From IMG/VR virus record IMGVR_UViG_3300037247_000734, positions 1 through 57,265 of that record: a stretch of 57,265 nt of DNA; one strand, given 5' to 3'. How positions within the stretch are numbered: position 1 is the stretch's first letter; the number at the start of each line of letters is the position of its first letter. The translations under genes were made by a program, and so were the position numbers. The stretch comes from a virus (taxonomy: Duplodnaviria > Caudoviricetes). Below the pieces are notes generated by a model. The model ran no database searches. It saw only the letters and a list, made by a program, of their open reading frames with translations, and had not been told where the DNA came from. Positions 1 to 53,641 of the stretch are shown here, in pieces.

Positions 1-139
1 CCTCCTGCTCTCTGCGGGGGTAGCTCAGAAGCGGTTAGAGCCCCTGGGACGCCAGGAAGAAGCAGGTTCAATTCCTGCCCCCCGCTGTTGAAGGGAGGAG
101 TTATGAGTAACTACGGTACAATGGCCACCAGTGCTAGCC
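1..139. repeat. Terminal direct repeat, left copy (probably circular assembly overlap)
   Basis: Identical to 57127-57265 except A127 vs G57253. Confidence 0.95.
14..86 (+). tRNA. tRNA-like element with a 4-nt anticodon loop (no assignable anticodon; repeated at 57140-57212)
   Basis: Acceptor GCGGGGG/CCCCCGC, TA, D-stem GCTC/GAGC with GG in loop, stem CCTGG/CCAGG closing GACG, 5-nt variable loop, T-arm GCAGG-TTCAATT-CCTGC; no encoded CCA. Confidence 0.8.
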
Positions 140-29587: not shown

Positions 29588-29616
29588 ATTATAGCACCTT
29601 ATCGGTCCTTTGTCAA
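29588..29616 (-). promoter_or_regulatory. Consensus sigma70-type promoter with CCGATAA in its spacer
   Basis: TTGACA-AAGGACCGATAAGGTGC-TATAAT. Confidence 0.75.
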
Positions 29617-35837: not shown

Positions 35838-36175
35838 TTCGGCACCCCCATCCCGTCCACGAAGTCCACTTTTCTATCTGTTTCCCAGTTCCATAATTGC
35901 CACTCGAACTCCACTTGGCAGAGTTTCCACGGCCTCGGCAGTACCTTGTTCAACCGATTTTTGGTGATGGCTGTGCGATACCCGCGAGTGTATAGGAAAA
36001 GTGAGCCATCCGCGTATAGCCGAGCAATTACGTGCTTGTGCAGAAGCACCGCGACACCGCAACCCACCACACAGTTCCGCAACACGGTATTGTTGCACAC
36101 TGTCTTTTGCTCCCTGCCCTTCAACAAGACTTGAGCCTGCTTGTATGATCGACACTCAAAGTCTTTCACCCTCAT
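35834..36175 (-). CDS. Hypothetical protein
   Basis: GAGGTG RBS; LH..VIA...G...T.GY.T.ITKNRLN..LP pattern seen in small phage proteins. Confidence 0.65.
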   Translation of the reverse strand: MRVKDFECRSYKQAQVLLKGREQKTVCNNTVLRNCVVGCGVAVLLHKHVIARLYADGSLFLYTRGYRTAITKNRLNKVLPRPWKLCQVEFEWQLWNWETDRKVDFVDGMGVPK

Positions 36176-36468
36176 GGTTTCACCTCCCCGCCGCAAGCTA
36201 AAACGTGCACTCCCAAGAACCGAGCCGCTACCTGACGTTCGATGTCATCGGGAATAGAAGCCCGACCATGAGACAACCTGGGAAGGGCTAACATTGGTGG
36301 AACCCCCATCTTGCACAAACCATTTTCGATCAGACGGGCAGCCATACGTCCATAGCTCCCCTGTAAGTGCCACACAGTACCATCGTCGATCCCTTTCTGG
36401 AATCCGGCGACAGTGGCCTCCTGACCCAACTCCCCCGCTTCGTATGCTATGATGAAGTCAACGTCCAT
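36172..36468 (-). CDS. Hypothetical protein
   Basis: FQ..ID.G.VWHLQGSYGRMA..LIE.G motif seen in phage proteins. Confidence 0.7.
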   Translation of the reverse strand: MDVDFIIAYEAGELGQEATVAGFQKGIDDGTVWHLQGSYGRMAARLIENGLCKMGVPPMLALPRLSHGRASIPDDIERQVAARFLGVHVLACGGEVKP

Positions 36469-36655
36469 AGCTCTCTACCTTTCTTACCAAATAATCTCGC
36501 TGCTTCAAGAGGTCACCTAGGATCTCCTTCACCCTTCCGGTCTTCAAGTTCCATTCCGTCATAGAAATGTGATGCTTCTTGACGCGGTGCTCAATGGCGA
36601 CTTGAACCTGTCCCAACGCAATCTCCGTATCCGCTAGTCTCGGTCCCTTTTTCAT
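36458..36655 (-). CDS. Hypothetical protein
   Basis: GGAG RBS; first gene after the 36694-36722 promoter. Confidence 0.55.
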   Translation of the reverse strand: MKKGPRLADTEIALGQVQVAIEHRVKKHHISMTEWNLKTGRVKEILGDLLKQRDYLVRKVESYGR

Positions 36656-36693
36656 TGCCCTATCTCCCGGTCGGCCCCGTTGCCGACAATTCA

Positions 36694-36722
36694 AGCATAG
36701 CATTTGAGTATTTCGATGTCAA
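36694..36722 (-). promoter_or_regulatory. Sigma70-type promoter with A/T-rich UP element
   Basis: GAAAAGTTTTTTC-TTGACA-17-TATGCT, followed by TGAATTGTCGGCA. Confidence 0.7.
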
Positions 36723-36733
36723 GAAAAAACTTT

Positions 36734-36868
36734 TCACGATCGCAGCCCTTTCACTATAGCCAGTGTCAGGAAGAAGGCACCAAGCCAGTACAGTGCCTTC
36801 CAGTACATCCCCTTCCACAGAGCCTCGACGAGACACCCCACCTGCAACAGCAACATCAGGGTCTCCAT
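36734..36868 (-). CDS. 44-aa membrane peptide closing the Ubl operon (not in ORF track)
   Basis: TGATG coupling; METLMLLLQVGCLVEALWKGMYWKALYWLGAFFLTLAIVKGLRS. Confidence 0.55.
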   Translation of the reverse strand: METLMLLLQVGCLVEALWKGMYWKALYWLGAFFLTLAIVKGLRS

Positions 36869-37125
36869 CACCCGAACATCTCCCGTAGATTCGCATTCCG
36901 CTGTTCTCTGAGAGACTCATCCGGGTCCCTCGCCTTACATTGAACTTGCTCTTCCGGAAGAGCGTACAAGGGGATTGCTCCAACCCCCTCGATCGGGTAC
37001 CTTATCTTGAAGTCCCGCATGAATGCCTTCGGGAATGGCGGTACGATTTCAAGTTGGATTGATTCCTCCGCCTCCCTCAGCGTCCTCTGTTGTTCCGCCA
37101 TCCGTAGGTCCTCCGTCTGGTCCAT
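36868..37125 (-). CDS. Hypothetical protein in the Ubl operon
   Basis: GAGGAG RBS before ATG 37125. Confidence 0.6.
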   Translation of the reverse strand: MDQTEDLRMAEQQRTLREAEESIQLEIVPPFPKAFMRDFKIRYPIEGVGAIPLYALPEEQVQCKARDPDESLREQRNANLREMFG

Positions 37126-37531
37126 CACTGCTCTCCTCATTAAGATTATATGAACACATGTCCTTCGATCCTCCCAAGGGTCCATCGGGGACCGCAATAG
37201 TAAGATGACCCTCCTTGTCGAATGTTATGCTTGCTGTTTCCTGTAACATGAGTAGACACATCGAGAGCACCCTGAGCAACGGGCAAAGGGCATGAGGGTC
37301 CTGGGTCAGATGGCCAAACAGGGTTAGTGCGACCTTCTCAAGGAAGTCCTCTTCGTGGCCCGCTTTCATTGTCGCAGTTAATGTACACATGGCAGACCAG
37401 ATACTTACTACAGTGCTGATACCATTCATGTTCAACTCTACAGACTGCCCCGTGTCAGGATGCTTTCCGACTCTGACCTGCCTCACTCTTCGATCATCAT
37501 TCGGACACCGACTGTAGTTCATATCACTCAT
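37049..37531 (-). CDS. Hypothetical protein coupled to the E2-like gene
   Basis: ATGA overlap with the upstream stop. Confidence 0.6.
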   Translation of the reverse strand: MSDMNYSRCPNDDRRVRQVRVGKHPDTGQSVELNMNGISTVVSIWSAMCTLTATMKAGHEEDFLEKVALTLFGHLTQDPHALCPLLRVLSMCLLMLQETASITFDKEGHLTIAVPDGPLGGSKDMCSYNLNEESSDGPDGGPTDGGTTEDAEGGGGINPT

Positions 37532-38739
37532 GGTAGTCTCCCATTCGTCAGCCTGTGGAGTATCTTACCTCTCTCGTCCGTGTGGGATATATCCACGTTG
37601 CCCGGCCCGTCGAGGTTCGACTTGAGCAACTGCAGGCTGAAGTAGTCGAGACTTTGATCCTCACGCTGTACTGTTATGGGCAACTCACGCAACATAGCTA
37701 AGCCGAAGGCTCTCCTTTGACGTTCGGAGCACTCGGAACCCGCCACCCCGGACAACAGTTCGCGTACCAACTCCTGTGCCTTTTCTATCCACGCTATCGG
37801 AGGACGAACGTTGGTGTAATTGATCGGGTTCCCCGGCACATGTAGGCTGTAGCCCATAACAGAATGACGTAGGAGACGGAGTTCTATCGCACTCGGAGAG
37901 GGCTCGCATTCAAAGCCACGGAAGTCACCTATACAACCACCCATATAGCCTCGATTGTACTGATGCTTGTAGGGACCCAACCACTGCGGTGTCACGGGAG
38001 GCCAACCCCTCTCGCCTAGTGCCCTGTTCATTTCGTACAACCAGTCAGGCACCACGTACAGTCCCATCATTTTCTCTCTTGTGATAGGCAATGTTAAACC
38101 GAATGCGTAAGCCGCTGCTTCACGTAGGGTTTCATTCGCCATAAGAGTCCTAATATCGTGAGTCCGGCACCCTGCGTAGCGTTTAATGATGTCCAGGACC
38201 AGTGGACCCTCCCAGGGTTCCTTTCCAGTAAAATATACTTCTTCCCCTGCCAGGAAGGTGGCAGCATACTCGGAAGCGAGCTTGAGCCAATCTAGTTCGA
38301 CGCCCCCCTGACGTTGCTCCATCATGGCTTCAAGAACCAACGACAGTCCCCACTGTCTCTTTATCCTCCGGGGTGGCAAGGTCCCTAGCTTTTCATACCC
38401 ATACTTGATTAACTTGTCACGTAAGGGTGCCACGTCCAATTGGGCAAAGCCACAGCAATAGGGAGTCCCCTCGGGAGCCGGGATCATTAGGGCCTTATAC
38501 CTCGCGGTCTCTACCGAACCTTCTTCGCAGGTCCACTCAAGGTAGTTCTTCCTCACTTCGGTTACACCTCCGCTCTGTTCAGGCCAAATGAGGTGGAATG
38601 CTTCCGTAATCGTACCGAACAGTTCCCCAGCCTTATAACTCCTCGCCGGTGGGTTTTCCCACTCCGCCAACTGGTCAATTCCTATGGTTATGCAGTCCGC
38701 TACGGTCCCTCCTACACCACAACTAGGCCACTTTGCCAT
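37528..38739 (-). CDS. Putative prokaryotic E2-like conjugating enzyme with large N-terminal extension
   Basis: H-x9-C motif HQYNRGYMGGCIGDF has the His-Cys spacing of the E2 HPN...C motif; AGGAG RBS; operon with Ubl, E1 and JAB. Confidence 0.55.
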   Translation of the reverse strand: MAKWPSCGVGGTVADCITIGIDQLAEWENPPARSYKAGELFGTITEAFHLIWPEQSGGVTEVRKNYLEWTCEEGSVETARYKALMIPAPEGTPYCCGFAQLDVAPLRDKLIKYGYEKLGTLPPRRIKRQWGLSLVLEAMMEQRQGGVELDWLKLASEYAATFLAGEEVYFTGKEPWEGPLVLDIIKRYAGCRTHDIRTLMANETLREAAAYAFGLTLPITREKMMGLYVVPDWLYEMNRALGERGWPPVTPQWLGPYKHQYNRGYMGGCIGDFRGFECEPSPSAIELRLLRHSVMGYSLHVPGNPINYTNVRPPIAWIEKAQELVRELLSGVAGSECSERQRRAFGLAMLRELPITVQREDQSLDYFSLQLLKSNLDGPGNVDISHTDERGKILHRLTNGRLP

Positions 38740-39751
38740 TATTGCCTCCTCTATCGGGAACGAGTCGAATGCCAATCGGAGCATCGTCCCACCTGTTGGC
38801 TAAGCACAGATTCCTGTAACCTCGGTAGTCAGCCGAGTCCAGAAGATACGTATCCCCGTCACTAGTCACCAGCCACAGGTCGCCAACACTCTCCAGGACA
38901 GGCTCGTCCCACGCTGTCATTAGAGCTACTGCATATAGCCCCGGTTCCCACGGGGTCTCCTCTTCCTTCCCGTGTGGCCTGGTGAACTTCGTGTCCCCTA
39001 TTAGATTCTTGAACCATTCACTCTGTTGCCACTTGAGCTGTCCTCGCTTGGACCTCGGATCATACAGCATCGGTTGTTTGGTTGGCTTGGGCACTTGCAG
39101 GAGTTTCTTGAGCTTCCTGTTCAAGGACGTATAGAGAGGGGCGGCTTTCCTCTCCATGTCCATAATCGTACCATCGGTGATATGGACACAGTGGCCGTAT
39201 GCACTTCCGTAGGTCGAGAAGGTTCCATCACGTCCGAAAATGACGTGAATTCCGGAACATTCCTTCTCCGTCCAATGACCGAGGTCGAAGGAGGAGGCAC
39301 CTGACGCCGATCCGGGATGTATATGGACGGTCCCGAGGAAACGTGCCCGTTCAAGAAACCAGTTCATACCCTCCTTGTCCTGCCACTCAATGCCTCCGGA
39401 AGTCCCCACCTGTTTCGGAACCATAAAGAACCACGGACACTTGTCCTTTACAATCTGGTGTTGCCTGCCCACGACGTACATGACCTCACGCTTGTACTGC
39501 GAGAGGAAACGGTCATACAGGTCCGCCAACCACCCCATTTCGGGATACTGATCCCAGTCCACGCCTCCGTAGTACAAGGCGGGTTTGGTCTTGTCAGCCG
39601 GTTCCGCCGGGCAGATAAGGGTCATCAAGCCCCGCGTCGTGCGATACAGACGGAGGTCCTCGCCGACCATCACTTCACCCACGCCGGGCAGGGCCTCAGT
39701 CGTGGCGAGAGCCTTGAACTCTTCAACCAAAGGCAGCGGGTCCCTAGCCAT
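38723..39751 (-). CDS. JAB/JAMM metalloprotease (Ubl-processing or deconjugating enzyme)
   Basis: Upstream Glu (KREV), VPKQ, exact HxHx7Sx2D (HIHPGSASGASSFD), GIHVIFG; TGATG coupling to E1. Confidence 0.85.
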   Translation of the reverse strand: MARDPLPLVEEFKALATTEALPGVGEVMVGEDLRLYRTTRGLMTLICPAEPADKTKPALYYGGVDWDQYPEMGWLADLYDRFLSQYKREVMYVVGRQHQIVKDKCPWFFMVPKQVGTSGGIEWQDKEGMNWFLERARFLGTVHIHPGSASGASSFDLGHWTEKECSGIHVIFGRDGTFSTYGSAYGHCVHITDGTIMDMERKAAPLYTSLNRKLKKLLQVPKPTKQPMLYDPRSKRGQLKWQQSEWFKNLIGDTKFTRPHGKEEETPWEPGLYAVALMTAWDEPVLESVGDLWLVTSDGDTYLLDSADYRGYRNLCLANRWDDAPIGIRLVPDRGGNNGKVA

Positions 39752-40515
39752 CAGAGTATCTCCTCCGGCTCGACAGCCGTGCGGGCCACGACGGTAGTCC
39801 AAGCCTTGGTAGTATAGGTCTTGGGATTCCGCCGCCAGTAGTATTCCCCCACTACTACGGGCAGGTCTCCCTCCGGCTTCCAGAACGTCACGGCCTCAAG
39901 GATAGCTGGACCAAACAAGGCCCCCGTCATAAGGTTCGAGAGCGTACTCTGAGCACCGCAGCCCTGTGGCTCGTTCCCGTCGATAGGCTTGTGGTTCGGA
40001 TCACCGACCTCTAAATGGAAGGGCTTCCAATCGTGCACAGCACCGTAGTTCTCGTAGACCCCAAAGTACACCTGTCCGTAGTTCATGTCGCAGCCGCTCA
40101 TCACCATAAGAGTACGGCCCCCTCGGTTCACACACCACTCCCGAACGGCAAGGCGAGCGTCGTCCACATCCACATTCACGATAACAATCACATCCGCTCG
40201 TGGACCTATCGACACATCACCCTCAAGAGCCCACGCTTGGAATGTACACGTCCGTGCCGAGGTTCGGGCGAGTAGCCCCTTGGGGGTGTGGGTATCCTTA
40301 GCACTGGCGACTTTGCTAATGCCGAGGATATTGAAGTTGTCTTCTCTGCACCACTGTCGCTCGGTGTTCCTCGGCGTCAGCCAATCCGGGTCCAGGTAGC
40401 GAATTGCCAAAGGTTGGAGTCTCTTGAGTAGGGAACAAAAGTAGTTCCCCGAGGTCCAGTACGTACCGCCGCAGCCGACGAATATGACCGCCACGTCGTT
40501 AGGCATATAAGTCAT
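39751..40515 (-). CDS. ThiF/E1-family Ubl-activating enzyme
   Basis: VGCGGT, DPD.L..RN..RQ, SK, VD..DAR, GQV, candidate catalytic C in QGCGAQSTLSN. Confidence 0.85.
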   Translation of the reverse strand: MTYMPNDVAVIFVGCGGTYWTSGNYFCSLLKRLQPLAIRYLDPDWLTPRNTERQWCREDNFNILGISKVASAKDTHTPKGLLARTSARTCTFQAWALEGDVSIGPRADVIVIVNVDVDDARLAVREWCVNRGGRTLMVMSGCDMNYGQVYFGVYENYGAVHDWKPFHLEVGDPNHKPIDGNEPQGCGAQSTLSNLMTGALFGPAILEAVTFWKPEGDLPVVVGEYYWRRNPKTYTTKAWTTVVARTAVEPEEIL

Positions 40516-40894
40516 CGGGTTCCCCTCCATTATCAACCGGGTCAACTGGGTCAACCGGGTTATCGTCCAATTCCAGAAGGTTCGGCCACGCCGGATTTCT
40601 CCGGAGCCAATTAACTTCCGAACCAGTCAGAAACGTCTTATCCTCGAAGTGCTTCGATGCAAGTCGGGGGTCGTAGACAACTTTTCCTGTTTCAAGGTTC
40701 TGTACTACAACCTTCTTGTTCAGCACCTCAGTATCCCCATTCCCAAACAGGAGGAACAGTTCTGTCAACTCGGGGTATCGTGCATGGTGCCGAATACCCA
40801 ACCAACAGATGGTCTCCTTTGTCTCCCCATTGGGAGCAAAAACCTTCATTCTTGCAGGTGGACTACCAAAGAAGTCCTCTAAGAATGGGTGCAT
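40499..40894 (-). CDS. Hypothetical protein between Ubl and E1
   Basis: AAGGTG RBS; stop overlaps the E1 start. Confidence 0.65.
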   Translation of the reverse strand: MHPFLEDFFGSPPARMKVFAPNGETKETICWLGIRHHARYPELTELFLLFGNGDTEVLNKKVVVQNLETGKVVYDPRLASKHFEDKTFLTGSEVNWLRRNPAWPNLLELDDNPVDPVDPVDNGGEPDDLYA

Positions 40895-40965
40895 TGTCCA
40901 CCTTTCAGCAAGGGGGGGAGGGAACTTTTCCCCCGCCCCCCACCTCCGTGGCCACAAGAGGATCG

Positions 40966-41196
40966 CTACGCGAGACGCCCACCAACCGGGGCTGTCGCTA
41001 CCGTGTCGCCTTCTTTGACGACCGTCGCCGCAGTCGCGGGATGACCATTGACACGTATGGCATTAATAGTGTCGATACCTCGTAGGTGTCCATCCTCGAA
41101 CAGAGCCCGCACCGTGGAGTCTACAGGGACCTCCGTGGTGATGAACTCACCGTTGACCTCAATCGAGACCTTCATCGCTGCTTGTTCCTCAGCCAT
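40966..41196 (-). CDS. Ubiquitin-like beta-grasp protein (ThiS/MoaD-like), 76 aa, ending VGG-RLA
   Basis: AGGAGG RBS; MKVSIEVNG...STVRAL...IRVNG...VKEGDTV..AP.GG. Confidence 0.85.
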   Translation of the reverse strand: MAEEQAAMKVSIEVNGEFITTEVPVDSTVRALFEDGHLRGIDTINAIRVNGHPATAATVVKEGDTVATAPVGGRLA

Positions 41197-41274
41197 TACC
41201 CGTCCTCCTATCGGCGTCCGCCGATGATGAGGCTGCCTCAACTCTGAGCATCCCGTCGATGCCCTTACGTTCAA

Positions 41275-41303
41275 AACATAGCATCTTCCCGGAAGATTGT
41301 CAA
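41275..41303 (-). promoter_or_regulatory. Promoter of the Ubl operon, with palindromic spacer
   Basis: TTGACA-17-TATGTT with TG extended -10; spacer holds ATCTTCC-N-GGAAGAT. Confidence 0.7.
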
Positions 41304-41311
41304 CAACTATC

Positions 41312-41629
41312 CTAAAGTTTTTTTGAACCCGATAATACCTTCAATGCTTCGGCGATGAAGCGAGGATTATCGGCAAGGAATTGGGTAAGGGCTTCTCCCA
41401 AGATAACGAGGATGGCCTCCTCGTCCTTGAAGTCATGCCCTGCAACCATAGCATGGAGACTCTCGTGGATCACAAGCTCGATCTTACGGGAACGAGTCGT
41501 CCGACGGAGAACTCGGATGGTGGTCGTGCCGCTATCCATATCGGCGGCGACATCAGACCCGAGTTCCCTTTGGGTAGCCGACTTGACCTTGTAGGTGTGA
41601 GCACCGATCTTGACTGACCTGGGAAGCAT
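41312..41629 (-). CDS. Small HExxH (zincin-like) phage protein
   Basis: P..VKIG...YKV start; VIHESLHA; AGGAGG RBS. Confidence 0.7.
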   Translation of the reverse strand: MLPRSVKIGAHTYKVKSATQRELGSDVAADMDSGTTTIRVLRRTTRSRKIELVIHESLHAMVAGHDFKDEEAILVILGEALTQFLADNPRFIAEALKVLSGSKKL

Positions 41630-42354: not shown

Positions 42355-43104
42355 CTACGTACCGAGGGCACGGCTGATCGCCATACCAACCAGGTTGATC
42401 TTCGGATCGGCACCGGCAGACGAATCTTCGAGGACACTCAGAAACGGAATCAGGTCCACGATATTTCCGGCTCCTACAGCCCCCCCAAAGTACCCGTTAC
42501 AACTGACTTCTCGTTCATCGACAAACACTCGGGCGATGCCTTGGGGATCAAACTTGATCGCGAGGTGGACATACTGGCTGGCTGCTACTGTTGCCACACC
42601 GGCAATGACGGTGTCGGAGTTGCCGATGGAGCTGACTGCGTCGAGTATGGCATCATCAGTCGCTTGGAGAGCGATACAGTCGTTGTCCGCGTTCGACGCT
42701 GTGCCATTTGTCAACATCAGGCCAACCTTGATGACTCGATCAGTCAGGACGGCATCATATTGGAACAACCACTCACACTCAGTCTCCTGGTCTGTACCCC
42801 AGGTAAACTCAGTGAGAGGGCTCCCATTCGCGAGGGTTGCCGGTCCTATTGCAACTCCAAGGACGGTATCCGCCACCACAGCATAAAAGTTGCCACCCGA
42901 TTCGACCGCCACTGCCGCTGTTGCCGACGTAATGCTGGCCCCCGTGAGGATCATATCGGCGTCCGCGATCATCCGGGTGCTATCTGTAGCGTTAACGTAG
43001 TCTGCGAGGATCGCAACCTTACCACGGAGAGGACGCCAGACGAAGTTTATCCTGTCCCGGCGGTCAACCTCGTGGGTGATGAAGCTCTGTAGTGAGGCTC
43101 TCAC
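42355..43104 (-). CDS. Paralog 4 of the beta-sandwich array
   Basis: Near-colinear with 43114-43890 (TRMIAD, FTWGTDQETE, ISRALG). Confidence 0.75.
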   Translation of the reverse strand: MRASLQSFITHEVDRRDRINFVWRPLRGKVAILADYVNATDSTRMIADADMILTGASITSATAAVAVESGGNFYAVVADTVLGVAIGPATLANGSPLTEFTWGTDQETECEWLFQYDAVLTDRVIKVGLMLTNGTASNADNDCIALQATDDAILDAVSSIGNSDTVIAGVATVAASQYVHLAIKFDPQGIARVFVDEREVSCNGYFGGAVGAGNIVDLIPFLSVLEDSSAGADPKINLVGMAISRALGT

Positions 43105-43113
43105 GATTTCTCC

Positions 43114-43890
43114 TTATGCACCGAGGGCACGGCTAATGGCAAACCCAACCAGATTGTACTTGGGATCAGCCGCTCCGGACGTGTCCTCTTTGCCGCCGTA
43201 GAACGGGATTAGATCAACGACGTTTCCGGCCCCTACCGAGCCCCCGAAGTTTGGAGCCCCTATATGGACTTCTCGTCCGTCGATGTAGCAGTGGGGGGTC
43301 CCCGCCGGATCGAACTTGATGGCGAGGTGAACGTAGCCACTTGCGGCCCGAGTCGCAGCCCCGGTCGTGAGCAGGTCCGCACCACTCCCTCCAATTGAGA
43401 CTCCAACGTCGATAACCGCTACGTTCTCGTCGATTGAGAAGTACACCTGATCGTTATCGGTGGTCTGAGCAGCTACGGGATCGTCGATCGCGTCCGACAG
43501 ACGCAGGCCGCAGACCATCCACCTGTCGGTAATGGCCGAGTCTATCTGAATCAGCCACTCAGCCTCGGTCTCCTGGTCCGTGCCCCACGTAAACTCCGTG
43601 AGGGGACTGTTGTTCGTCAGGGTAGCCGGGCCGAAGATGCATTCGTCGGTGCCTCCGCTCACTACCGCGTAAAAGTTACCACCACTTTCAACGGCTACGG
43701 CCGCTGTACCCGACGTGATGTTCAAACCTGTAAGGATCACATCGGGATCAGCGATCATTCGTGTAGCGTCGGTCGCATGGACGTAGTCAGCCAGGAGGGC
43801 AGCCTTGCCCTTGAGGGGACGCCAGATGTGGTTGATTCGGTCCCGGCGACTCGGTTCACGGGTGATGAAACTATGAAGAGATGCTCTCAC
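43114..43890 (-). CDS. Paralog 3 of the beta-sandwich array
   Basis: Shared TRMIADP, YVHLAIKFD and ISRALG motifs. Confidence 0.75.
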   Translation of the reverse strand: MRASLHSFITREPSRRDRINHIWRPLKGKAALLADYVHATDATRMIADPDVILTGLNITSGTAAVAVESGGNFYAVVSGGTDECIFGPATLTNNSPLTEFTWGTDQETEAEWLIQIDSAITDRWMVCGLRLSDAIDDPVAAQTTDNDQVYFSIDENVAVIDVGVSIGGSGADLLTTGAATRAASGYVHLAIKFDPAGTPHCYIDGREVHIGAPNFGGSVGAGNVVDLIPFYGGKEDTSGAADPKYNLVGFAISRALGA

Positions 43891-43902
43891 AATACTTACT
43901 CC

Positions 43903-44646
43903 TTATCGGGCCTGTCCGATAGCCCGTGAAATTCGCCACCCGTACACGGTCATAGCCTCGGTCGCTCCGGAATTCTCCAGGACTTGTACCCCGATCATCG
44001 GCGTTTGGGCCACGGCTGCACCGCCTGTCATGTCAAGGTGGGCTACGAGCTGGCCGTTGATTCGGGCTTCGCATCGGCCCAACCCGGTGTACTTGATTGA
44101 AAAGTGGTACACGCCACCGGCTACAACAAGTACGCCTGTGTCAACGTCCAGGTCGGTTCCGCCCGACGCTACGTCGGTAACAAAACCCCAGTTCGTGTCG
44201 CTGTCGTCACCCTCGTTGAAGTTGAAAACCGCCATGCCATTGTTATTAACGGCCATGTCAGCCGGGTTGGTGTTTAGCTGGAGCCCTGCCATCACTATGA
44301 GGTCCGTAATAGTCGAGGGCATCTTGATAGCACACTCGAATTCAGCCTCGCGGTCGGTCCGCAGGGTGAGGTTGTCAACGTGGCATTGGCAGGCATTCGC
44401 CAGTTCGTGTACAACCAGGATCGACTGATCGTTATCCACGGCTGCCGTCACTACGTCGATTCCGCCCTCAGCGTTGACGCTGGTGTTTCCGACGACCGCA
44501 TTAGTACCTGCAACCTCGACTAGCGGATCGGTAATCATCCGCGTGGACTCAGCCGTAGCCGTCAGGTTCGCTGTGACGCCGGGCTTACCGTTCTCACCAG
44601 CGATCCACAGCCACTCACGATAATGTCTGTTCAGAAGGAAACTCAT
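43903..44646 (-). CDS. Paralog 2 of the beta-sandwich array
   Basis: TRMITDP, YHFSI, ING..VA, ISRAIG. Confidence 0.75.
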   Translation of the reverse strand: MSFLLNRHYREWLWIAGENGKPGVTANLTATAESTRMITDPLVEVAGTNAVVGNTSVNAEGGIDVVTAAVDNDQSILVVHELANACQCHVDNLTLRTDREAEFECAIKMPSTITDLIVMAGLQLNTNPADMAVNNNGMAVFNFNEGDDSDTNWGFVTDVASGGTDLDVDTGVLVVAGGVYHFSIKYTGLGRCEARINGQLVAHLDMTGGAAVAQTPMIGVQVLENSGATEAMTVYGWRISRAIGQAR

Positions 44647-44649
44647 GGT

Positions 44650-45402
44650 TTAGGCTCCGTAAAGGCGACTGATCTTCTGCTCGTACCACACAACCTCGTC
44701 GGTGGTGGCAGACAGCGATTGCAGTCCCATCACTGGTTTAAGGTCTACGGTATTCCCACCGAAGTCCACCTCGGCGACCTTAACGCCGTTGATGTAGCAG
44801 TGGGCCGTCTCGTTCACGTCAAACTCGATACGGAAGTGATAACGAGTGAGCCCCGCCACCCGAACTCCCGAATCCGTATCAACCACGGTTCCGCCACCAG
44901 CGTTGCTCACGACACCCCAGGAGGCATCGGAATCGTCAGTGTTGAAGTTGAACAGTACAAGGTCATCATCATCTAGGCCCATGTCCAGGTCACTCTTGAG
45001 CCCGGCAATGAGGTGAATTCCAGTGGTGATGTCAGCGGGTGTTTCAAGATATCCTTCCCACCGGACCTCTCGATCACTGCCCCACGTCACATAGTTCCAC
45101 GGGCTCTGTCCCGCGTCCTGGTGAGGTACCAGAATCTCCTGATCGTCGTCCGCACCACCTGTCTGAGCAGTTAGTCCACCCTCAGAATTGTGCGTTACGT
45201 CGTCAGTCGCGGCACTCGTCCCCAGAATCTCGAAATCCGGGTCCGCCGTCATCCGAGTTGCCTCAGTCGAGTTTTGAATGTCGGCATTTATCGAGGGAAT
45301 ACCCCGCTCGCCACCGACCCACGTCAACTGCAACCTTCCACCTCGCCAGTCACGTTGTGGCCCGGCACAGACAGGAATATAGTCACTCGCCTTACCCATC
45401 AT
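44650..45402 (-). CDS. Paralog 1 of the beta-sandwich array (ConA/LamG-like pattern)
   Basis: TRMTADP, TWGSDRE, YHFRI, YING..VA, ISRLYG. Confidence 0.75.
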   Translation of the reverse strand: MMGKASDYIPVCAGPQRDWRGGRLQLTWVGGERGIPSINADIQNSTEATRMTADPDFEILGTSAATDDVTHNSEGGLTAQTGGADDDQEILVPHQDAGQSPWNYVTWGSDREVRWEGYLETPADITTGIHLIAGLKSDLDMGLDDDDLVLFNFNTDDSDASWGVVSNAGGGTVVDTDSGVRVAGLTRYHFRIEFDVNETAHCYINGVKVAEVDFGGNTVDLKPVMGLQSLSATTDEVVWYEQKISRLYGA

Positions 45403-47122: not shown

Positions 47123-47151
47123 ATTATAGGACCCCCGGGGTCCACTGTCAA
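47123..47151 (-). promoter_or_regulatory. Consensus sigma70-type promoter with palindromic spacer
   Basis: TTGACA-GTGGACCCCGGGGGTCC-TATAAT. Confidence 0.8.
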
Positions 47152-47460: not shown

Positions 47461-50121
47461 ATGGAGACCACACTAGACATTATTCAGCTAGGTCGGGACC
47501 GGGAGTGCACCCGGTGTGACCTACACGAGGAATGCAAGACGGTCTGTATCCCGACAACGTCGCACGGCGTGCCAGCGTGTCGCTCCCGTGCCATCCTGAT
47601 AATCGGTGAGGCTCCTGGTGGAGTTGAGGACCTCAAGGATCGGCCCTTCGTCGGGCCATCCGGACATATTCTCCGAAAACTGTACATCGAGTTCTTCAAG
47701 CTGGCCGAGAGGACTGACGTGTACTGTGCAAATGCGGCGAGGTGCCGCCCTCCTGGGAATCGGACCCCGAATAAAACTCAACTGAGAGCCTGTCACGGCT
47801 TTCTACTCGCTGATGTTGTTCAACTACAGCGGGAATACAATGAGGTCCTGGTCCTAGTGGTAGGTGGCCCCGCCGCTCGTGCAGTATGGGGTGGCTCCCT
47901 CAAAGATTCCTTCCGCAGGCAAGGTGACTTCACCGACTGGCACAACCTCGTAAAGAACCCGGACCCTGTGCCTAAGCCGTGTCGGGTGTTTTCGACCTAT
48001 CATCCTGCGTTCATTCGACGCGAACCCTCCACCGCACTGTCGGTCAAGCGTCACATGCAGATGCTATCCGACTACCTGGACGGCAAACTGAAGTATGAGC
48101 TTGACGATCTGCTGGACATTAGCACCGCCCCAATGCCCCCCGAGTACAAACTGGGCCGCTTGTCTCTCGATATCGAGACCTACGGAATCGTGAAGAGCTT
48201 TCCGAAGCAGCGGTTCTTCCATCCCAAGCTATCCGTCGGACGGGACTTCATCGCCTCAAAGAACCTAGTTCAAACATGCGGTCTGACTTGGCGGGAGCCT
48301 CTCACGAGTTGTGGTCTTGGAGCAGGTGAGGGCTTGCAGCAACACGCTATCTTCTACATGGACGATAGGGTTCATCGTAGTAGGTTGTGGGCATGGCTCA
48401 AGAAGTGCCGCAGGGAGTCGGGTTTCGAGTTCCTGTTGGGCCAGAACATCGTATTCGATCTGATGTACCTCCGTCATGCGTACCCGGAGGCCCGCATCCT
48501 GCTCGACGACCCCCTACCCATTATGGACCTGATGGTCCTTAACTACCTACACGACGAGTCCCGTCCGGAGAAGTCGCTCAAGGCCCTGGCTCCTCTCTTC
48601 CGCGTGTCCAAGTATGGCGACCCCAAGACCAAGGGGGAATTCAAGCGATACGACAACAACCGTGTTCCCGAACTTGTTCAGTACAACTGTCAGGACACGG
48701 CCAGTACATTGCGGATTGCTGAGAAACTGATGACCGAGATCAAGGGATTCTACGGTAATGACACCAAAAAGCTCTCCCCGTTCTGTATGAAGTGGTACAG
48801 TCAGCTTCTATGGCTAATTGTTTGGATGTCCGAGAACGGCCTCCGTATGGATAAAGGCAAGCTCGTAGAGTTGTTCGACCGGAATGAACGAGCCCAGAAT
48901 GCCATCACGCGGGCAGCCCGAGAACTCTACAATATGCCCCTCCGTGGTACGGGCTCTGAGAGGGCCAAACGTGCTATGATGGACGACGCTGTTACAGTTG
49001 TGGATCAAACTAACGAATTGCCAGACCTGGAGCTTACGGACAAGAAAAAAGAGATTTGCTTCTCGGCAGATAACCGCAATGCCCTGATGGACCTACTGGA
49101 CCGAGAGCTGCTTGCTTATAAGCAACTCAAGCTGTTCGGGGCGTATCAGGATGTGTCCGGTCTCATGGACCGCTACTTATACCCACTACTTGTGGGAGGA
49201 GGAAAGAAGCATGACAACAAGGCTAGTGTACTCCTCAATGGGTTTGCCTATCCGCGTTGGTTTCCCGTGCCCTCCGAGTTTGAGGATCGCTCGACCGGAG
49301 GGACCAAACAAGCTCGCATTGTGGCAAAAGGACCACCATGCCAGACATTTCCGCCTGTCGTCAAAAGACTTATTAGAGGCCGGTTCCCTACTGGCTGGCA
49401 GATATGGTTCGACTACTCGCAAATCGAGTTTCGCGTGGCTGCTCTGCTCTCGAACGACCCAGCCATGATGGAGGAGTATCAGGGGTCGCCGGACCTGCAC
49501 GGCACGACGACGTGCCTCATGTTCGGTGATGATATCGTCAACCACCCCCAGTACAAGGCCAAGTATCGGCAGGCGGGCAAGGTGTTCAACTTCCGTGCCC
49601 TCTACCGAGGCGGTGCCAAGAGAGCCCAAACTTCCCTTATGAAGGACCTCGGTATCCACCTCGACCTGGTTCAGATCACCAAGATCGACAACGCCTTCTG
49701 GAAGAAGCACCGCCGATTGCGTATATGGCAGGATGAACTGATGGCGTTCGTCCAGAAACGAGGGTTCTACGAACTACCCTTAATCGGACAATCGAGATTG
49801 TTCCTTGGTGGCAGGAAGGCCAGAGAACAGAAGCTCAACGAAGTCGTGAACCTGCCCGTCCAGGCGATCGCCGCCGACATCATGTTGTCGGCCCAGTACG
49901 TCCTGTGGGCCAAGCTCCGTCAAGCAGGCTTGAAGGCGGTCATCCCCTGCAACGTGTACGATGCGGCTCTCATCGAATGCCCGAAATACGAAGTCCATCG
50001 GGTGCGACGGATCATGGCCGAGGTCCTTCCGAACCCACCCTTCTACCAAGCGTTGTGCGACGAACTAGGACGTACACTCCCACTTGAATACGAGATAGAG
50101 GAGAAACGTGTTGTTGCTTGA
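47461..50121 (+). CDS. Family A DNA polymerase with N-terminal family-4 uracil-DNA glycosylase domain and 3'-5' exonuclease
   Basis: UDG: CxxC, GEAPG, PFVGPSG, CRPP.NRTP, YHPA. Exo: LDIET, N..FD, YN..D. Pol: DYSQIEFR, R..GK.FNF..LY, N.PVQ..AAD, VYD. Confidence 0.93.
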   Translation: METTLDIIQLGRDRECTRCDLHEECKTVCIPTTSHGVPACRSRAILIIGEAPGGVEDLKDRPFVGPSGHILRKLYIEFFKLAERTDVYCANAARCRPPGNRTPNKTQLRACHGFLLADVVQLQREYNEVLVLVVGGPAARAVWGGSLKDSFRRQGDFTDWHNLVKNPDPVPKPCRVFSTYHPAFIRREPSTALSVKRHMQMLSDYLDGKLKYELDDLLDISTAPMPPEYKLGRLSLDIETYGIVKSFPKQRFFHPKLSVGRDFIASKNLVQTCGLTWREPLTSCGLGAGEGLQQHAIFYMDDRVHRSRLWAWLKKCRRESGFEFLLGQNIVFDLMYLRHAYPEARILLDDPLPIMDLMVLNYLHDESRPEKSLKALAPLFRVSKYGDPKTKGEFKRYDNNRVPELVQYNCQDTASTLRIAEKLMTEIKGFYGNDTKKLSPFCMKWYSQLLWLIVWMSENGLRMDKGKLVELFDRNERAQNAITRAARELYNMPLRGTGSERAKRAMMDDAVTVVDQTNELPDLELTDKKKEICFSADNRNALMDLLDRELLAYKQLKLFGAYQDVSGLMDRYLYPLLVGGGKKHDNKASVLLNGFAYPRWFPVPSEFEDRSTGGTKQARIVAKGPPCQTFPPVVKRLIRGRFPTGWQIWFDYSQIEFRVAALLSNDPAMMEEYQGSPDLHGTTTCLMFGDDIVNHPQYKAKYRQAGKVFNFRALYRGGAKRAQTSLMKDLGIHLDLVQITKIDNAFWKKHRRLRIWQDELMAFVQKRGFYELPLIGQSRLFLGGRKAREQKLNEVVNLPVQAIAADIMLSAQYVLWAKLRQAGLKAVIPCNVYDAALIECPKYEVHRVRRIMAEVLPNPPFYQALCDELGRTLPLEYEIEEKRVVA

Positions 50122-50168: not shown

Positions 50169-50933
50169 ATGAAAACTCAGAGAAGAATTATCCTTCCGGA
50201 CCTACACCTACCCTTCCACGATAAGAAGCTCTTGGCGTGCTGGCTGGAACGGCTCCGTTCCCGTATTTGGGACGGCGTGGACATCATAGGCGACTTCCTC
50301 GACTGCTATACGCTGAGCCGATTCGACGCCAATCCCACTCGAAAGGACACTCTCCAACAGGAGATCGACGAGAGCCATAAACTCCTACAGTATATCCGTA
50401 CCATATCTCCCGAAGCGGACATCAGGTATTCGGAGGGCAACCACGAGGATCGACTTCGTAAGATGCTGTGGGGAAAGGCCCCCGCTCTGGCTCACCTTCG
50501 CAACCTTACGATCCCCGACCTTCTGGACCTCCAGAACTTGTGTATCAAATGGCACAGTACCCAGAACCCCTACAAGATCAGCGACTTATGGTACACCCAC
50601 GGAGACGTTCTCCGAAAGCACGCAGGCATGTCGGCCCGAGCCAAATCTGAGGCCATCCACGGGTCAGTCATTGTTGGGCACACTCACCGTCAGGGTTGGT
50701 CGCCCCTGACGACGTGGAGCGGCACTGACGACGCCTATGAAGTCGGGTACATGGCTGATCCTACTCAGCTTGACTATGTCCGTACCCCCTTCAACTGGCA
50801 GTCGGGCTGGGCCGAGGTACAATTTGTTGATGGTACCCACCATGTGGACTTCTACCGAACGGTTGACCGTGGACGGGAACGAGTCGTAATCGGACCCGAG
50901 GGAGTGATAGCACAATGGAGAACACGAAGATGA
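50169..50933 (+). CDS. Calcineurin-like metallophosphoesterase
   Basis: DLH, GDFLD, GNHE, HG and GHTH motifs. Confidence 0.9.
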   Translation: MKTQRRIILPDLHLPFHDKKLLACWLERLRSRIWDGVDIIGDFLDCYTLSRFDANPTRKDTLQQEIDESHKLLQYIRTISPEADIRYSEGNHEDRLRKMLWGKAPALAHLRNLTIPDLLDLQNLCIKWHSTQNPYKISDLWYTHGDVLRKHAGMSARAKSEAIHGSVIVGHTHRQGWSPLTTWSGTDDAYEVGYMADPTQLDYVRTPFNWQSGWAEVQFVDGTHHVDFYRTVDRGRERVVIGPEGVIAQWRTRR

Positions 50934-52928: not shown

Positions 52929-53034
52929 GTGGGATGATGGCGACCACTGGGTGGGAGGTACTCCTCGGGAGACGCTTGATCTCCTAGATTCGGTGCTTTA
53001 CGAAACGACGGGGGCCTTTCATGGGAAGGAGTAA
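52867..53034 (+). CDS. 55-aa hypothetical protein (not in ORF track)
   Basis: GGGAG RBS; MAKSRMLSKKLEQEIHEAL...; bridges the gap to the next gene. Confidence 0.4.
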   Translation: MAKSRMLSKKLEQEIHEALAKWDDGDHWVGGTPRETLDLLDSVLYETTGAFHGKE

Positions 53035-53641
53035 TCTGGCGGGGGGAAGAGTTACAGAAGCAATGGGCAGACAGTTCATATTGGAGCAGGAAATGAGACA
53101 TGGGAACGAGAAAACTGAGTTCGAGACCGGGGCACACCGGGACACCGCCGAAGGGAAAGGAACCCCCAGTCTAATAAGTCCGATATTGATTCACCGACTT
53201 GGAGTGCTTCTTGAGGAGGGAGCAAAGCATTACGGGACCGATAACTGGAGGAAGGGAATGCCGTACCGTCGCGTGATCGACAGTATGATCCGACACACCT
53301 TCCTTGAGTTGGCCGGGGATAAAGAGGAGGACCACCTCGCTGCCATCGTCTTTGGGTGCATGTGTCTGATGACCTACAAATCTGACAAGGTCCTTGACCA
53401 GAAGCTCGACGACAGAGATGAGGGCCTGAAAAAAATTCTTCCATCTCTCTTGACTCCGACCCCGCCGAAGCCTAGACTTGAACGTGATGTACGCGAACAA
53501 GAGTTATCAACGCCCTCAAAGTGGCCAACGAAGATGCAGCCTTGCAAGGGTAGCTGTGGGGGAATGACGGTCTGGGAGGATGGGTATTGTCAGACTTGTA
53601 CAGTAAGGGGGGAGAATCCTAACCATGTCTGCTCTCAATAA
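53021..53641 (+). CDS. DUF5664 dATP/dGTP diphosphohydrolase-domain protein
   Basis: FETGA.RD...GK...SLI, GAKHYG..NWRKG, S..RH, EDHLAA; alternative start at 53093. Confidence 0.85.
   Translation: MGRSNLAGGRVTEAMGRQFILEQEMRHGNEKTEFETGAHRDTAEGKGTPSLISPILIHRLGVLLEEGAKHYGTDNWRKGMPYRRVIDSMIRHTFLELAGDKEEDHLAAIVFGCMCLMTYKSDKVLDQKLDDRDEGLKKILPSLLTPTPPKPRLERDVREQELSTPSKWPTKMQPCKGSCGGMTVWEDGYCQTCTVRGENPNHVCSQ

Follow-up and report, generated by a model that had tools for sequence, protein, structure and literature searches.

A ubiquitin-like tag operon with a candidate non-UBC cysteine carrier in a group of uncultured phages

Overview of the locus

The locus described here belongs to the IMG/VR virus record IMGVR_UViG_3300037247_000734, which was analysed as a whole (57,265 bases, rated complete by CheckV; hereafter the window). 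Its minus strand holds a compact unit of 4.6 kb with eight genes, whose predicted products are, in this order, a ubiquitin-like protein (Ubl, the tag) of 76 amino acids (aa), a 131-aa protein, an E1-type adenylating enzyme, a JAB/JAMM metalloprotease, a 403-aa protein with an invariant cysteine (the Cys protein) and three further small proteins. As judged from gene order and sequence comparison, a small group of uncultured phages carries such a Ubl-tag operon of its own. A first-pass annotation, made from the DNA letters alone, had described the unit as a phage-encoded conjugation operon and had assigned the 403-aa protein as an E2-like enzyme. We report here which parts of this description hold, and we propose that the Cys protein might take the place of an E2 in a phage-encoded pathway.

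A sigma-70-type promoter with an extended -10 element (TTGACA-17-TG.TATGTT; 41275..41303, minus strand; 10/12 consensus matches) heads the operon, and the next sigma-70-type promoter (36694..36722, minus strand) marks its end; the unit thus spans 41303 to just before 36722. Four copies of the strict pattern TTGACA-N14-TGNTATNNT lie in the window (29616, 36722, 41303 and 47151), all on the minus strand and ahead of gene blocks. Only 0.13 occurrences are expected from shuffled sequences, and 0 out of 100 shuffles reached four. These near-consensus extended -10 promoters (29588-29616, 36694-36722, 41275-41303 and 47123-47151, minus strand) split the minus strand into successive transcription units. 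Their sigma-70 character suggests a host of bacterial type, and all four together suggest that the RNA polymerase of this host may read most of the genome. Within the operon all genes lie on the minus strand, with starts and stops that overlap or abut; overlaps between neighbours amount to 1-17 nucleotides (nt) or more. The promoter scan and the overlapping genes confirm the single promoter heading a tightly coupled run of eight genes, with the bounds that had been drawn before.

The Ubl tag, the E1 enzyme and the JAB protease

The first gene (40966..41196, minus strand, as for all genes of the unit) codes for the 76-aa Ubl precursor and has an AGGAGG site 8 nt before its ATG. It is well supported by sequence comparison as a ThiS/MoaD-type beta-grasp protein. 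The window tag scores 19.7 bits against ThiS PF02597 (E=0.0012-0.0021), which is below the curated cut-off of 22.5, and the tags of two related viral genomes, L002 and L003, reach 27.4 and 23.3 bits. The best likenesses in NCBIfam and the PDB are MoaD, ThiS and PF1061, all of them weak; a profile search of the PDB with the Ubl gave nothing below E=0.5. One tag homologue bears the JGI label 'sulfur carrier protein ThiS'.

The end of the tag is a characteristic feature. An HLRG loop and a Gly before a short tail are invariant in the tag family, and the C-terminus P-x-[GAS]-G followed by a tail of 3-4 residues ([RQK][LQ][AG]) is found in 8 out of 9 tags. Five close sequences end in [GA]G-[RQ]LA and three distant ones in SG-KQG plus 0 or 1 residue; the P0028 tag diverges at its end and has no such tail motif. 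The window tag ends in PVGG-RLA, and together with the relatives that pass the ThiS cut-off this bears out the earlier description of a 76-aa Ubl with GG near its end. The penultimate residue of the tag core is G, A or S and not a fixed GG. ThiS and MoaD keep GG, and in the classical case Gly-Gly forms the extreme C-terminus; here a tail of 3-4 residues follows the Gly. Before adenylation can take place, this conserved tail would have to be cut off by a JAMM protease. Overhangs of 2-9 aa past the Gly have been described for 12 BilA homologues (10.1101/2023.09.04.556158), and tails are also found on the sulfur carriers QbsE and CxnE (PMC5925218). Since they occur on conjugating tags and on sulfur carriers, the tail decides neither way.

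The third gene (39751..40515) codes for a 254-aa protein which, from its motifs and its relatives, is well supported as a minimal, single-domain ThiF/MoeB-type E1 with intact ATP motifs. Against ThiF PF00899 (cut-off 28.1) the window protein scores 17.6 bits (E=0.0022) and its relative on the contig L004, to which it is 47% identical, 36.0 bits (E=5.2e-9). ThiF matches were found in 3 out of 5 members of the E1 family, those of L005 (a fragment) and L003 having none. If the family profile is compared to the PDB, 23 out of 24 matches at E<=1 are enzymes of the E1 superfamily, among them MccB, SUMO and NEDD8 E1 subunits, MoeB, TcdA and ThiF-type proteins. MoeB and ThiF share an adenylation motif layout of a Gly-rich loop, D-x-D...N-x2-R-Q, and a Mg/ATP-binding Asp with an Arg. 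The corresponding elements are conserved in this family as a GCGGT loop, DPD..N..RQ, NVDxDxxR and SGC....GQ, with C15, N114, D116, D118, R121, C142 and C186 invariant. The best NCBIfam model for 4 out of 6 E1s is PRTRC_ThiF, with about 17-33 bits against a cut-off of 144.75 (window E=0.0013). The earlier assignment as a ThiF/E1 enzyme stands on the conserved motifs and on the L004 relative, which lies above the Pfam cut-off.

The JAB/JAMM metalloprotease follows directly (38723..39751, 342 aa, extended at both the N- and the C-terminus). Its segment HIHPGSASGASSFD is an exact HxHx7Sx2D, as had been noted before, and the catalytic residues E89, H143, H145, S153 and D156 are invariant in 10 out of 10 sequences. 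The motif is also present in the JAB proteins of L002, L003 and L006, and a JAB protease with an invariant E..HxHx7Sx2D is well supported by this sequence family. With Prok-JAB PF14464 (cut-off 25 bits), 10 out of 12 relatives give a match at E<=0.01, the best of them reaching 24.9 bits, whereas neither P0008 nor the window protein matches it at E<=1. Other JAB matches are weak (PADLOC JAB, E=0.034; AfJAMM, E=0.086). The nearest NCBIfam model of the family is the CBASS isopeptidase Cap3, found with 10 out of 12 relatives at E 0.00046-0.19, with scores far below the cut-off (20.5 bits at best, where 200 are required) and with only the JAMM motif covered. Apart from the weak PADLOC match of the JAB protein, the operon proteins have no match in PHROGs or PADLOC. 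As the window's own Ubl, E1 and JAB stay below every curated cut-off, their identity rests on relatives and motifs.

The cysteine protein

The 403-aa protein (37528..38739) follows the JAB gene. Its assignment as E2-like had been based on an H-x9-C-IGDF motif. This string is present (H259..C269), but in the alignment of the 15 family members His259 is kept in 2 out of 15 and IGDF is not conserved. Invariant residues are P248, P251, N262, C269, W317 and P354, so that the pair N262-x6-C269 occurs in 15 out of 15 sequences. Classical E2 enzymes have the layout YPxxPP...HPN-x8-C. The invariant P-x2-P...N-x6-C resembles it, which we regard as a lead only, and the spacing differs from the x8 of the E2s. 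The six models UQ_con and Prok-E2_A to E gave no match at E<=10 in the six frames of the whole genome, and the E2 families of Pfam gave none at E<=10 in the 15 members of the family. Nor did any other Pfam family match these members, the sub-threshold likenesses of the L003 protein described below aside.

The family is rare: it accounts for 3 clusters in a collection of 5.8 billion, and a search of 1.84 billion representatives gave 12 at E<=0.001; its members are 370-520 aa long. An AlphaFold2 model of the window protein is confident (pLDDT 87.0, pTM 0.78) and presents an N-terminal helix followed by a beta-meander, with no recognisable fold. The loop with the Cys is less confident (pLDDT about 64), as expected of an exposed loop. 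A Foldseek search with this model had no match at E<=0.001, neither in the PDB nor in BFVD, and the matches listed for the whole model and for its residues 215-403 include no UBC chain. The ranges of the structural alignments span residues 34 to 398, which suggests that the N- and C-terminal strands of the modelled protein form one sheet. N- and C-terminal strands in a single sheet are not the layout of the UBC fold. A profile search of the PDB with the family gave nothing below E=0.5. With no match to an E2 model, no UBC chain among the fold matches listed, and neither the cited His nor IGDF conserved, we refrain from classing the 403-aa protein as an E2.

A lysozyme-like lead was rejected as well. 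The ESM Atlas pointed to Muramidase, SLT, VgrG3-like C and Destabilase with 0.80-0.83, which lies below the 0.9 level that shuffled proteins reach as well; the lead was dropped since the PDB gave no match of lysozyme-like fold to the confident model.

Some homologues of the Cys protein carry Cys-rich C-terminal extensions (L003 8894-10381, L006 8709-10265 and P0022). Among these tails only that of L003 has IBR or B-box matches, which are sub-threshold (E 0.09-2.8), and the extensions are at most a hint, from their sequence, towards a RING-like E3. A predicted complex of E1, Ubl and the 403-aa protein received a score of 0.00 and a mark of 0.32, which speaks neither for nor against binding.

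Occurrence in other viruses

The genes of the Ubl, a small protein, the E1, the JAB, the Cys protein and a 130-160-aa protein with NYxRCP/HALCP motifs recur in this order in L002, L003 and L006, which are viral genomes of 49-55 kb with terminases 47-50% identical to that of the window (3/3). Two short metagenome contigs, L004 and L005, hold the E1-JAB-Cys protein part and are truncated on the upstream side. The order Ubl-E1-JAB-Cys protein is thus complete in the window, L002, L003 and L006, and the Cys protein gene lies directly behind the JAB gene in 6 out of 6 loci with a homologue of the 403-aa protein (the window and L002-L006). In deposited phages nothing similar was seen: tblastn in 50,697 GenBank phages gave no match for the JAB, the E1 or the 403-aa protein. 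A scan of 185,579 prokaryote genomes gave no JAB or E1 relative keeping the chosen peptide patterns, and a viral scan with the single 403-aa protein gave no relative.

Between the window and the other loci the tag is 46-49% identical, the E1 30-47%, the JAB 33-54% and the terminase 47-50%. The Cys protein reaches 22-25% with its syntenic homologues, and this over part of its length only; it is the fastest-diverging member of the operon. Judging from these comparisons, such fast divergence would be expected of a component that faces a target or takes part in an arms race rather than of a metabolic enzyme. The invariant Asn-Cys pair within an otherwise fast-diverging protein suggests that the protein could combine chemistry with target contact.

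Small operon proteins and genome context

The second gene of the operon (40499..40894) codes for the 131-aa protein, which has no family match, no assigned function and no conserved Cys. It is 41% identical to its homologue in L004; in L002, L003 and L006 a small coiled-coil protein is found in its place. Behind the Cys protein gene lies the gene of a 160-aa protein (37049..37531). In its family, with homologues in L002, L003 and L006, the motifs NYxRCPxDD and HALCP and a third Cys are invariant, and this Cys/His set is a possible metal site or Cys-His centre; the protein has no family match, and a profile search of the PDB gave nothing below E=0.5. The open reading frame (ORF) at 36868..37197 could code for 109 aa and more likely codes for 77 aa, starting at the ATG at 37101 with a GGAGGA site. 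Its C-terminal REQR..NLR..FG is shared with a zinc-ribbon-like protein of 125 aa in L004, which matches TFS_arch at E=0.00057, far below the cut-off. The last gene of the unit (36734..36871) codes for a hydrophobic, probably membrane-bound protein of 44/45 aa with a homologue in L004. These small proteins (131, 160, 77 and 44 aa) would be accessory or target-related.

That the element is a phage, as the first-pass annotation had it, is evident from the complete virus record with terminase, portal and PolA. General family scans find a large terminase, a portal and tail-associated proteins, and further a PD-(D/E)XK exonuclease, a Sak4-like annealing protein and an SSB-like protein. An 886-aa ORF (47461-50121, plus strand) codes for a family-A DNA polymerase (PolA) with an N-terminal domain of the UDG superfamily. 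The window is very distant from deposited phages: its terminase matches only a fragment of 29% identity in Bacillus phage BalMu-1 among 50,697 records. Rfam calls a tRNA at 14-86 (plus strand; 49 bits, gathering threshold 29, E=1.7e-7), where ARAGORN gave none.

Three genes on the plus strand code for nucleotide-pool enzymes: a MazZ-like dATP/dGTP diphosphohydrolase N-domain (53021-53641), a dNMP phosphatase-like protein (2194-2853) and a metallophosphoesterase (50169-50933). Taken together they are a hint of nucleotide-pool editing or of a modified DNA base; none of the window ORFs scanned was PurZ-like.

Directly upstream of the operon promoter lies the gene of a 105-aa protein (41312-41629, minus strand) with a conserved HExxH motif (HESLH; HEALH in relatives) and a match to phrog_1233 (E=3.2e-12). 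It has the same position before the Ubl operon in L002, L003 and L006 and may code for a mini-metalloprotease with a link to the Ubl system. Further upstream, four tandem paralogues of about 250 aa (42355-45402, minus strand), 24-65% identical to the first of them, match neither Pfam nor PHROGs, and L002, L003 and L006 have homologues in the corresponding position. Virion or decoration proteins are conceivable identities for them, and they are possible targets of tagging. On the other side of the operon the next transcription unit begins with a small ORF (36458-36703), behind which its second gene (36172-36468, minus strand) codes for a DUF7417 / phrog_3908 protein (E=4e-12 and 7e-15) with no function assigned.

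Discussion

Relation to known systems

The first-pass annotation had placed the operon near PRTRC, Bil and CBASS. This holds as a distant likeness, and the features that define membership in any of the three were not found together here. Going by analogy, the operon would work most like the Bil/6d-type or the sampylation-type Ubl systems, yet it belongs to none of them.

The Bil system (BilABCD; operon type 6d of Iyer, Burroughs and Aravind 2006) is likewise described as one operon with a Ubl that has a conserved Gly, sometimes with an overhang, an E1 and a JAB protein. It is a bacterial anti-phage ubiquitination defence, whereas the operon reported here lies in a phage genome of lytic type. 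BilB is an E2 of the UBC type, and none was detected here at E<=10; PADLOC gives this operon only the weak JAB match. The BilD E1 is described as having tandem inactive and active adenylation domains and a mobile CYS domain (10.1101/2023.09.26.559546), in contrast to the single domain of 254 aa found here.

Archaeal sampylation (SAMP1-3, UbaA and HvJAMM1) likewise uses a ThiS/MoaD-type tag, a small E1 and a JAMM protease, and it is not known to involve an E2. The likeness, which is one of published descriptions, ends at the presumably bacterial-type host, the tag tail that would need trimming and the dedicated Cys protein of the phage.

The JAMM-matured sulfur carriers (QbsE/QbsD/QbsC and CxnE/CxnF/MoeZ) likewise combine a tailed ThiS/MoaD-type carrier with JAMM trimming before adenylation (PMC5925218). 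Their E1s are described as carrying or using a rhodanese domain and as standing in metabolite gene clusters; here neither a rhodanese or desulfurase nor a recognisable biosynthetic enzyme was found. From classical ThiS and MoaD the tag differs by its end, which is not a free GG, and there are no partner genes among the ORFs scanned.

PRTRC (ParB-related, ThiF-related cassette; NCBIfam TIGR03734-03742) has in common with this operon that both are Ubl-type cassettes on mobile DNA. Here no ParB_N is found at E<=1 in the genome, PRTRC_ThiF stays below its cut-off with 18.1-32.7 bits, and the PRTRC proteins A-F have no match; for PRTRC itself no experimental test is among the literature matches listed. 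With type II CBASS the operon shares Cap3 as the nearest named JAB model, in the JAMM motif only, while there is no CD-NTase and no E1-E2 fusion, and all scores are far below the cut-offs. A literature search gave no tailed-phage operon of this type, although phage-borne cases could stand in the supplementary operon lists that accompany Iyer 2006 and the Bil and Bub studies; the nearest case is that of E1-like genes in viruses of Asgard archaea.

Proposed pathway and alternatives

We tentatively favor, at somewhat below an even chance, that the operon encodes a phage protein-tagging pathway in one unit read by the host RNA polymerase, with the Cys protein as a non-UBC factor for conjugation or specificity. 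We infer the following order of steps. The JAB protease would cut off the RLA tail and thereby expose Gly73, which the E1 would then adenylate, possibly with a thioester on Cys186. The tag would be transferred to Cys269 of the 403-aa protein, which would attach it to a host or phage protein. The 403-aa protein would thus combine a conjugating enzyme with a specificity factor, as a functional analogue of E2 and E3 and not as a UBC homologue. The tagging might also be reversed by the JAB protease.

Three arguments lead us to this preference. The invariant Asn-Cys pair in a fast-diverging protein points to chemistry and target contact. Genes for a rhodanese, a desulfurase, thiamine or the molybdenum cofactor (Moco) were not found in the genome, and for thiamine and Moco the family scans of the window are in agreement with the earlier observation. 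Finally, there is an archaeal precedent for a non-E2 protein that promotes Ubl modification together with an E1, namely MsrA, which is reported to catalyse such modification with UbaA (PMC5587910).

A further-reaching version would make the Asn-x6-Cys proteins a new, non-UBC class of Ubl conjugating enzyme, E2 and E3 combined, invented or kept by lytic phages to tag host or phage proteins during infection. We consider this version rather unlikely.

Several observations weigh against the tagging pathway. None of the window's Ubl, E1 and JAB proteins reaches its Pfam cut-off, and no likeness of the 403-aa protein to an E2, an E3 or another thioester-forming enzyme was detected. In its small size the E1 resembles ThiF/MoeB, and it does not have the CYS insertion domain described for BilD (10.1101/2023.09.26.559546). 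Moreover, a Ubl, an E1 and a JAMM protease with a tailed carrier are equally the signature of a sulfur carrier, as in QbsE/QbsD and CxnE/CxnF (PMC5925218).

The last point leads to the strongest competitor, which we regard as unlikely, though as the least unlikely of the alternatives. The JAB protein would trim the carrier, the E1 would adenylate it, and a host sulfurtransferase would turn it into a thiocarboxylate, from which the 403-aa and 160-aa proteins would make a thio-metabolite, a thiolated nucleotide or a thiolated nucleic acid. The ThiS/MoaD type of the tag, including its JGI name, is an argument for this, and the size and motifs of the E1 fit it as well as they fit tagging. The trimming of tailed carriers by JAMM proteases is documented for the two pairs just named, and the MazZ-like and dNMP phosphatase-like enzymes make a chemistry of DNA or nucleotide modification plausible. 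Against a sulfur carrier, Rhodanese and Aminotran_5 (cysteine desulfurase) have no match at E<=1 in the six frames, although the host could supply both, and none of the thiamine, Moco or PP-loop thiolase families is among the ORFs scanned. The penultimate residue of the tag varies between G, A and S where ThiS and MoaD have GG. The presumed sulfur-using enzyme would also evolve far faster than the other parts, which is unusual with a fixed small substrate.

It appears improbable that tagging proceeds independently of any E2-like step, as in sampylation. The E1 alone would then modify target lysines, and the 403-aa protein would be the main target, an adaptor or co-transcribed cargo. This would agree with the E2 models having no match anywhere in the genome, and with the archaeal Ubl, E1 (UbaA) and JAMM protease (HvJAMM1) that are reported to conjugate proteins (PMC4443979, PMC4895103). 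The invariant Asn-x6-Cys amid fast divergence, however, points to chemistry beyond binding, and the gene of the 403-aa protein is strictly tied to the JAB gene in all six loci.

Even less probable, though compatible with the other readings, is a role in counter-defence against host Ubl immunity such as Bil or type II CBASS, in which the JAB protein would strip conjugates, or the tag and the E1 would jam the host pathway. Cap3 as the nearest NCBIfam model for 10 out of 12 JAB relatives is a hint in this direction, as are the arms-race-like divergence of one component and the report that host Ubl systems target phage parts (10.1101/2023.09.04.556158). This has to be set against the Cap3 scores, far below the cut-off and limited to the JAMM motif, and against the fact that a deconjugase by itself needs neither a tag nor an E1.

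A true but highly diverged UBC-fold E2 with large insertions, which would make the operon a Bil/PRTRC-type set of E1, E2, JAB and Ubl, is the least probable explanation: the P-x2-P...N-x6-C lead, the helix before the beta-meander and the PRTRC_ThiF likeness of 4 out of 6 E1s speak for it, against the six E2 families with no match, the fold matches listed with no UBC chain, the presence of His259 in only 2 out of 15 members and the suggested single sheet.

Conclusion

Bacterial Ubl systems (Bil, type II CBASS and Bub) have so far been described as anti-phage defences of the host, and here it is the phage side that carries one. What is new is its layout with no detected E2, the minimal E1 and a novel, rapidly evolving Cys protein in the place of the E2. 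If the tag is a sulfur carrier, the operon would point to a phage-made thio-modification of a type not yet recognised. If the Cys protein carries the tag, it would represent a new kind of conjugating enzyme and provide a handle on phage tagging during infection. Should the Asn-x6-Cys proteins form a conjugating class of their own, a second, structurally unrelated carrier would have evolved in Ubl conjugation.

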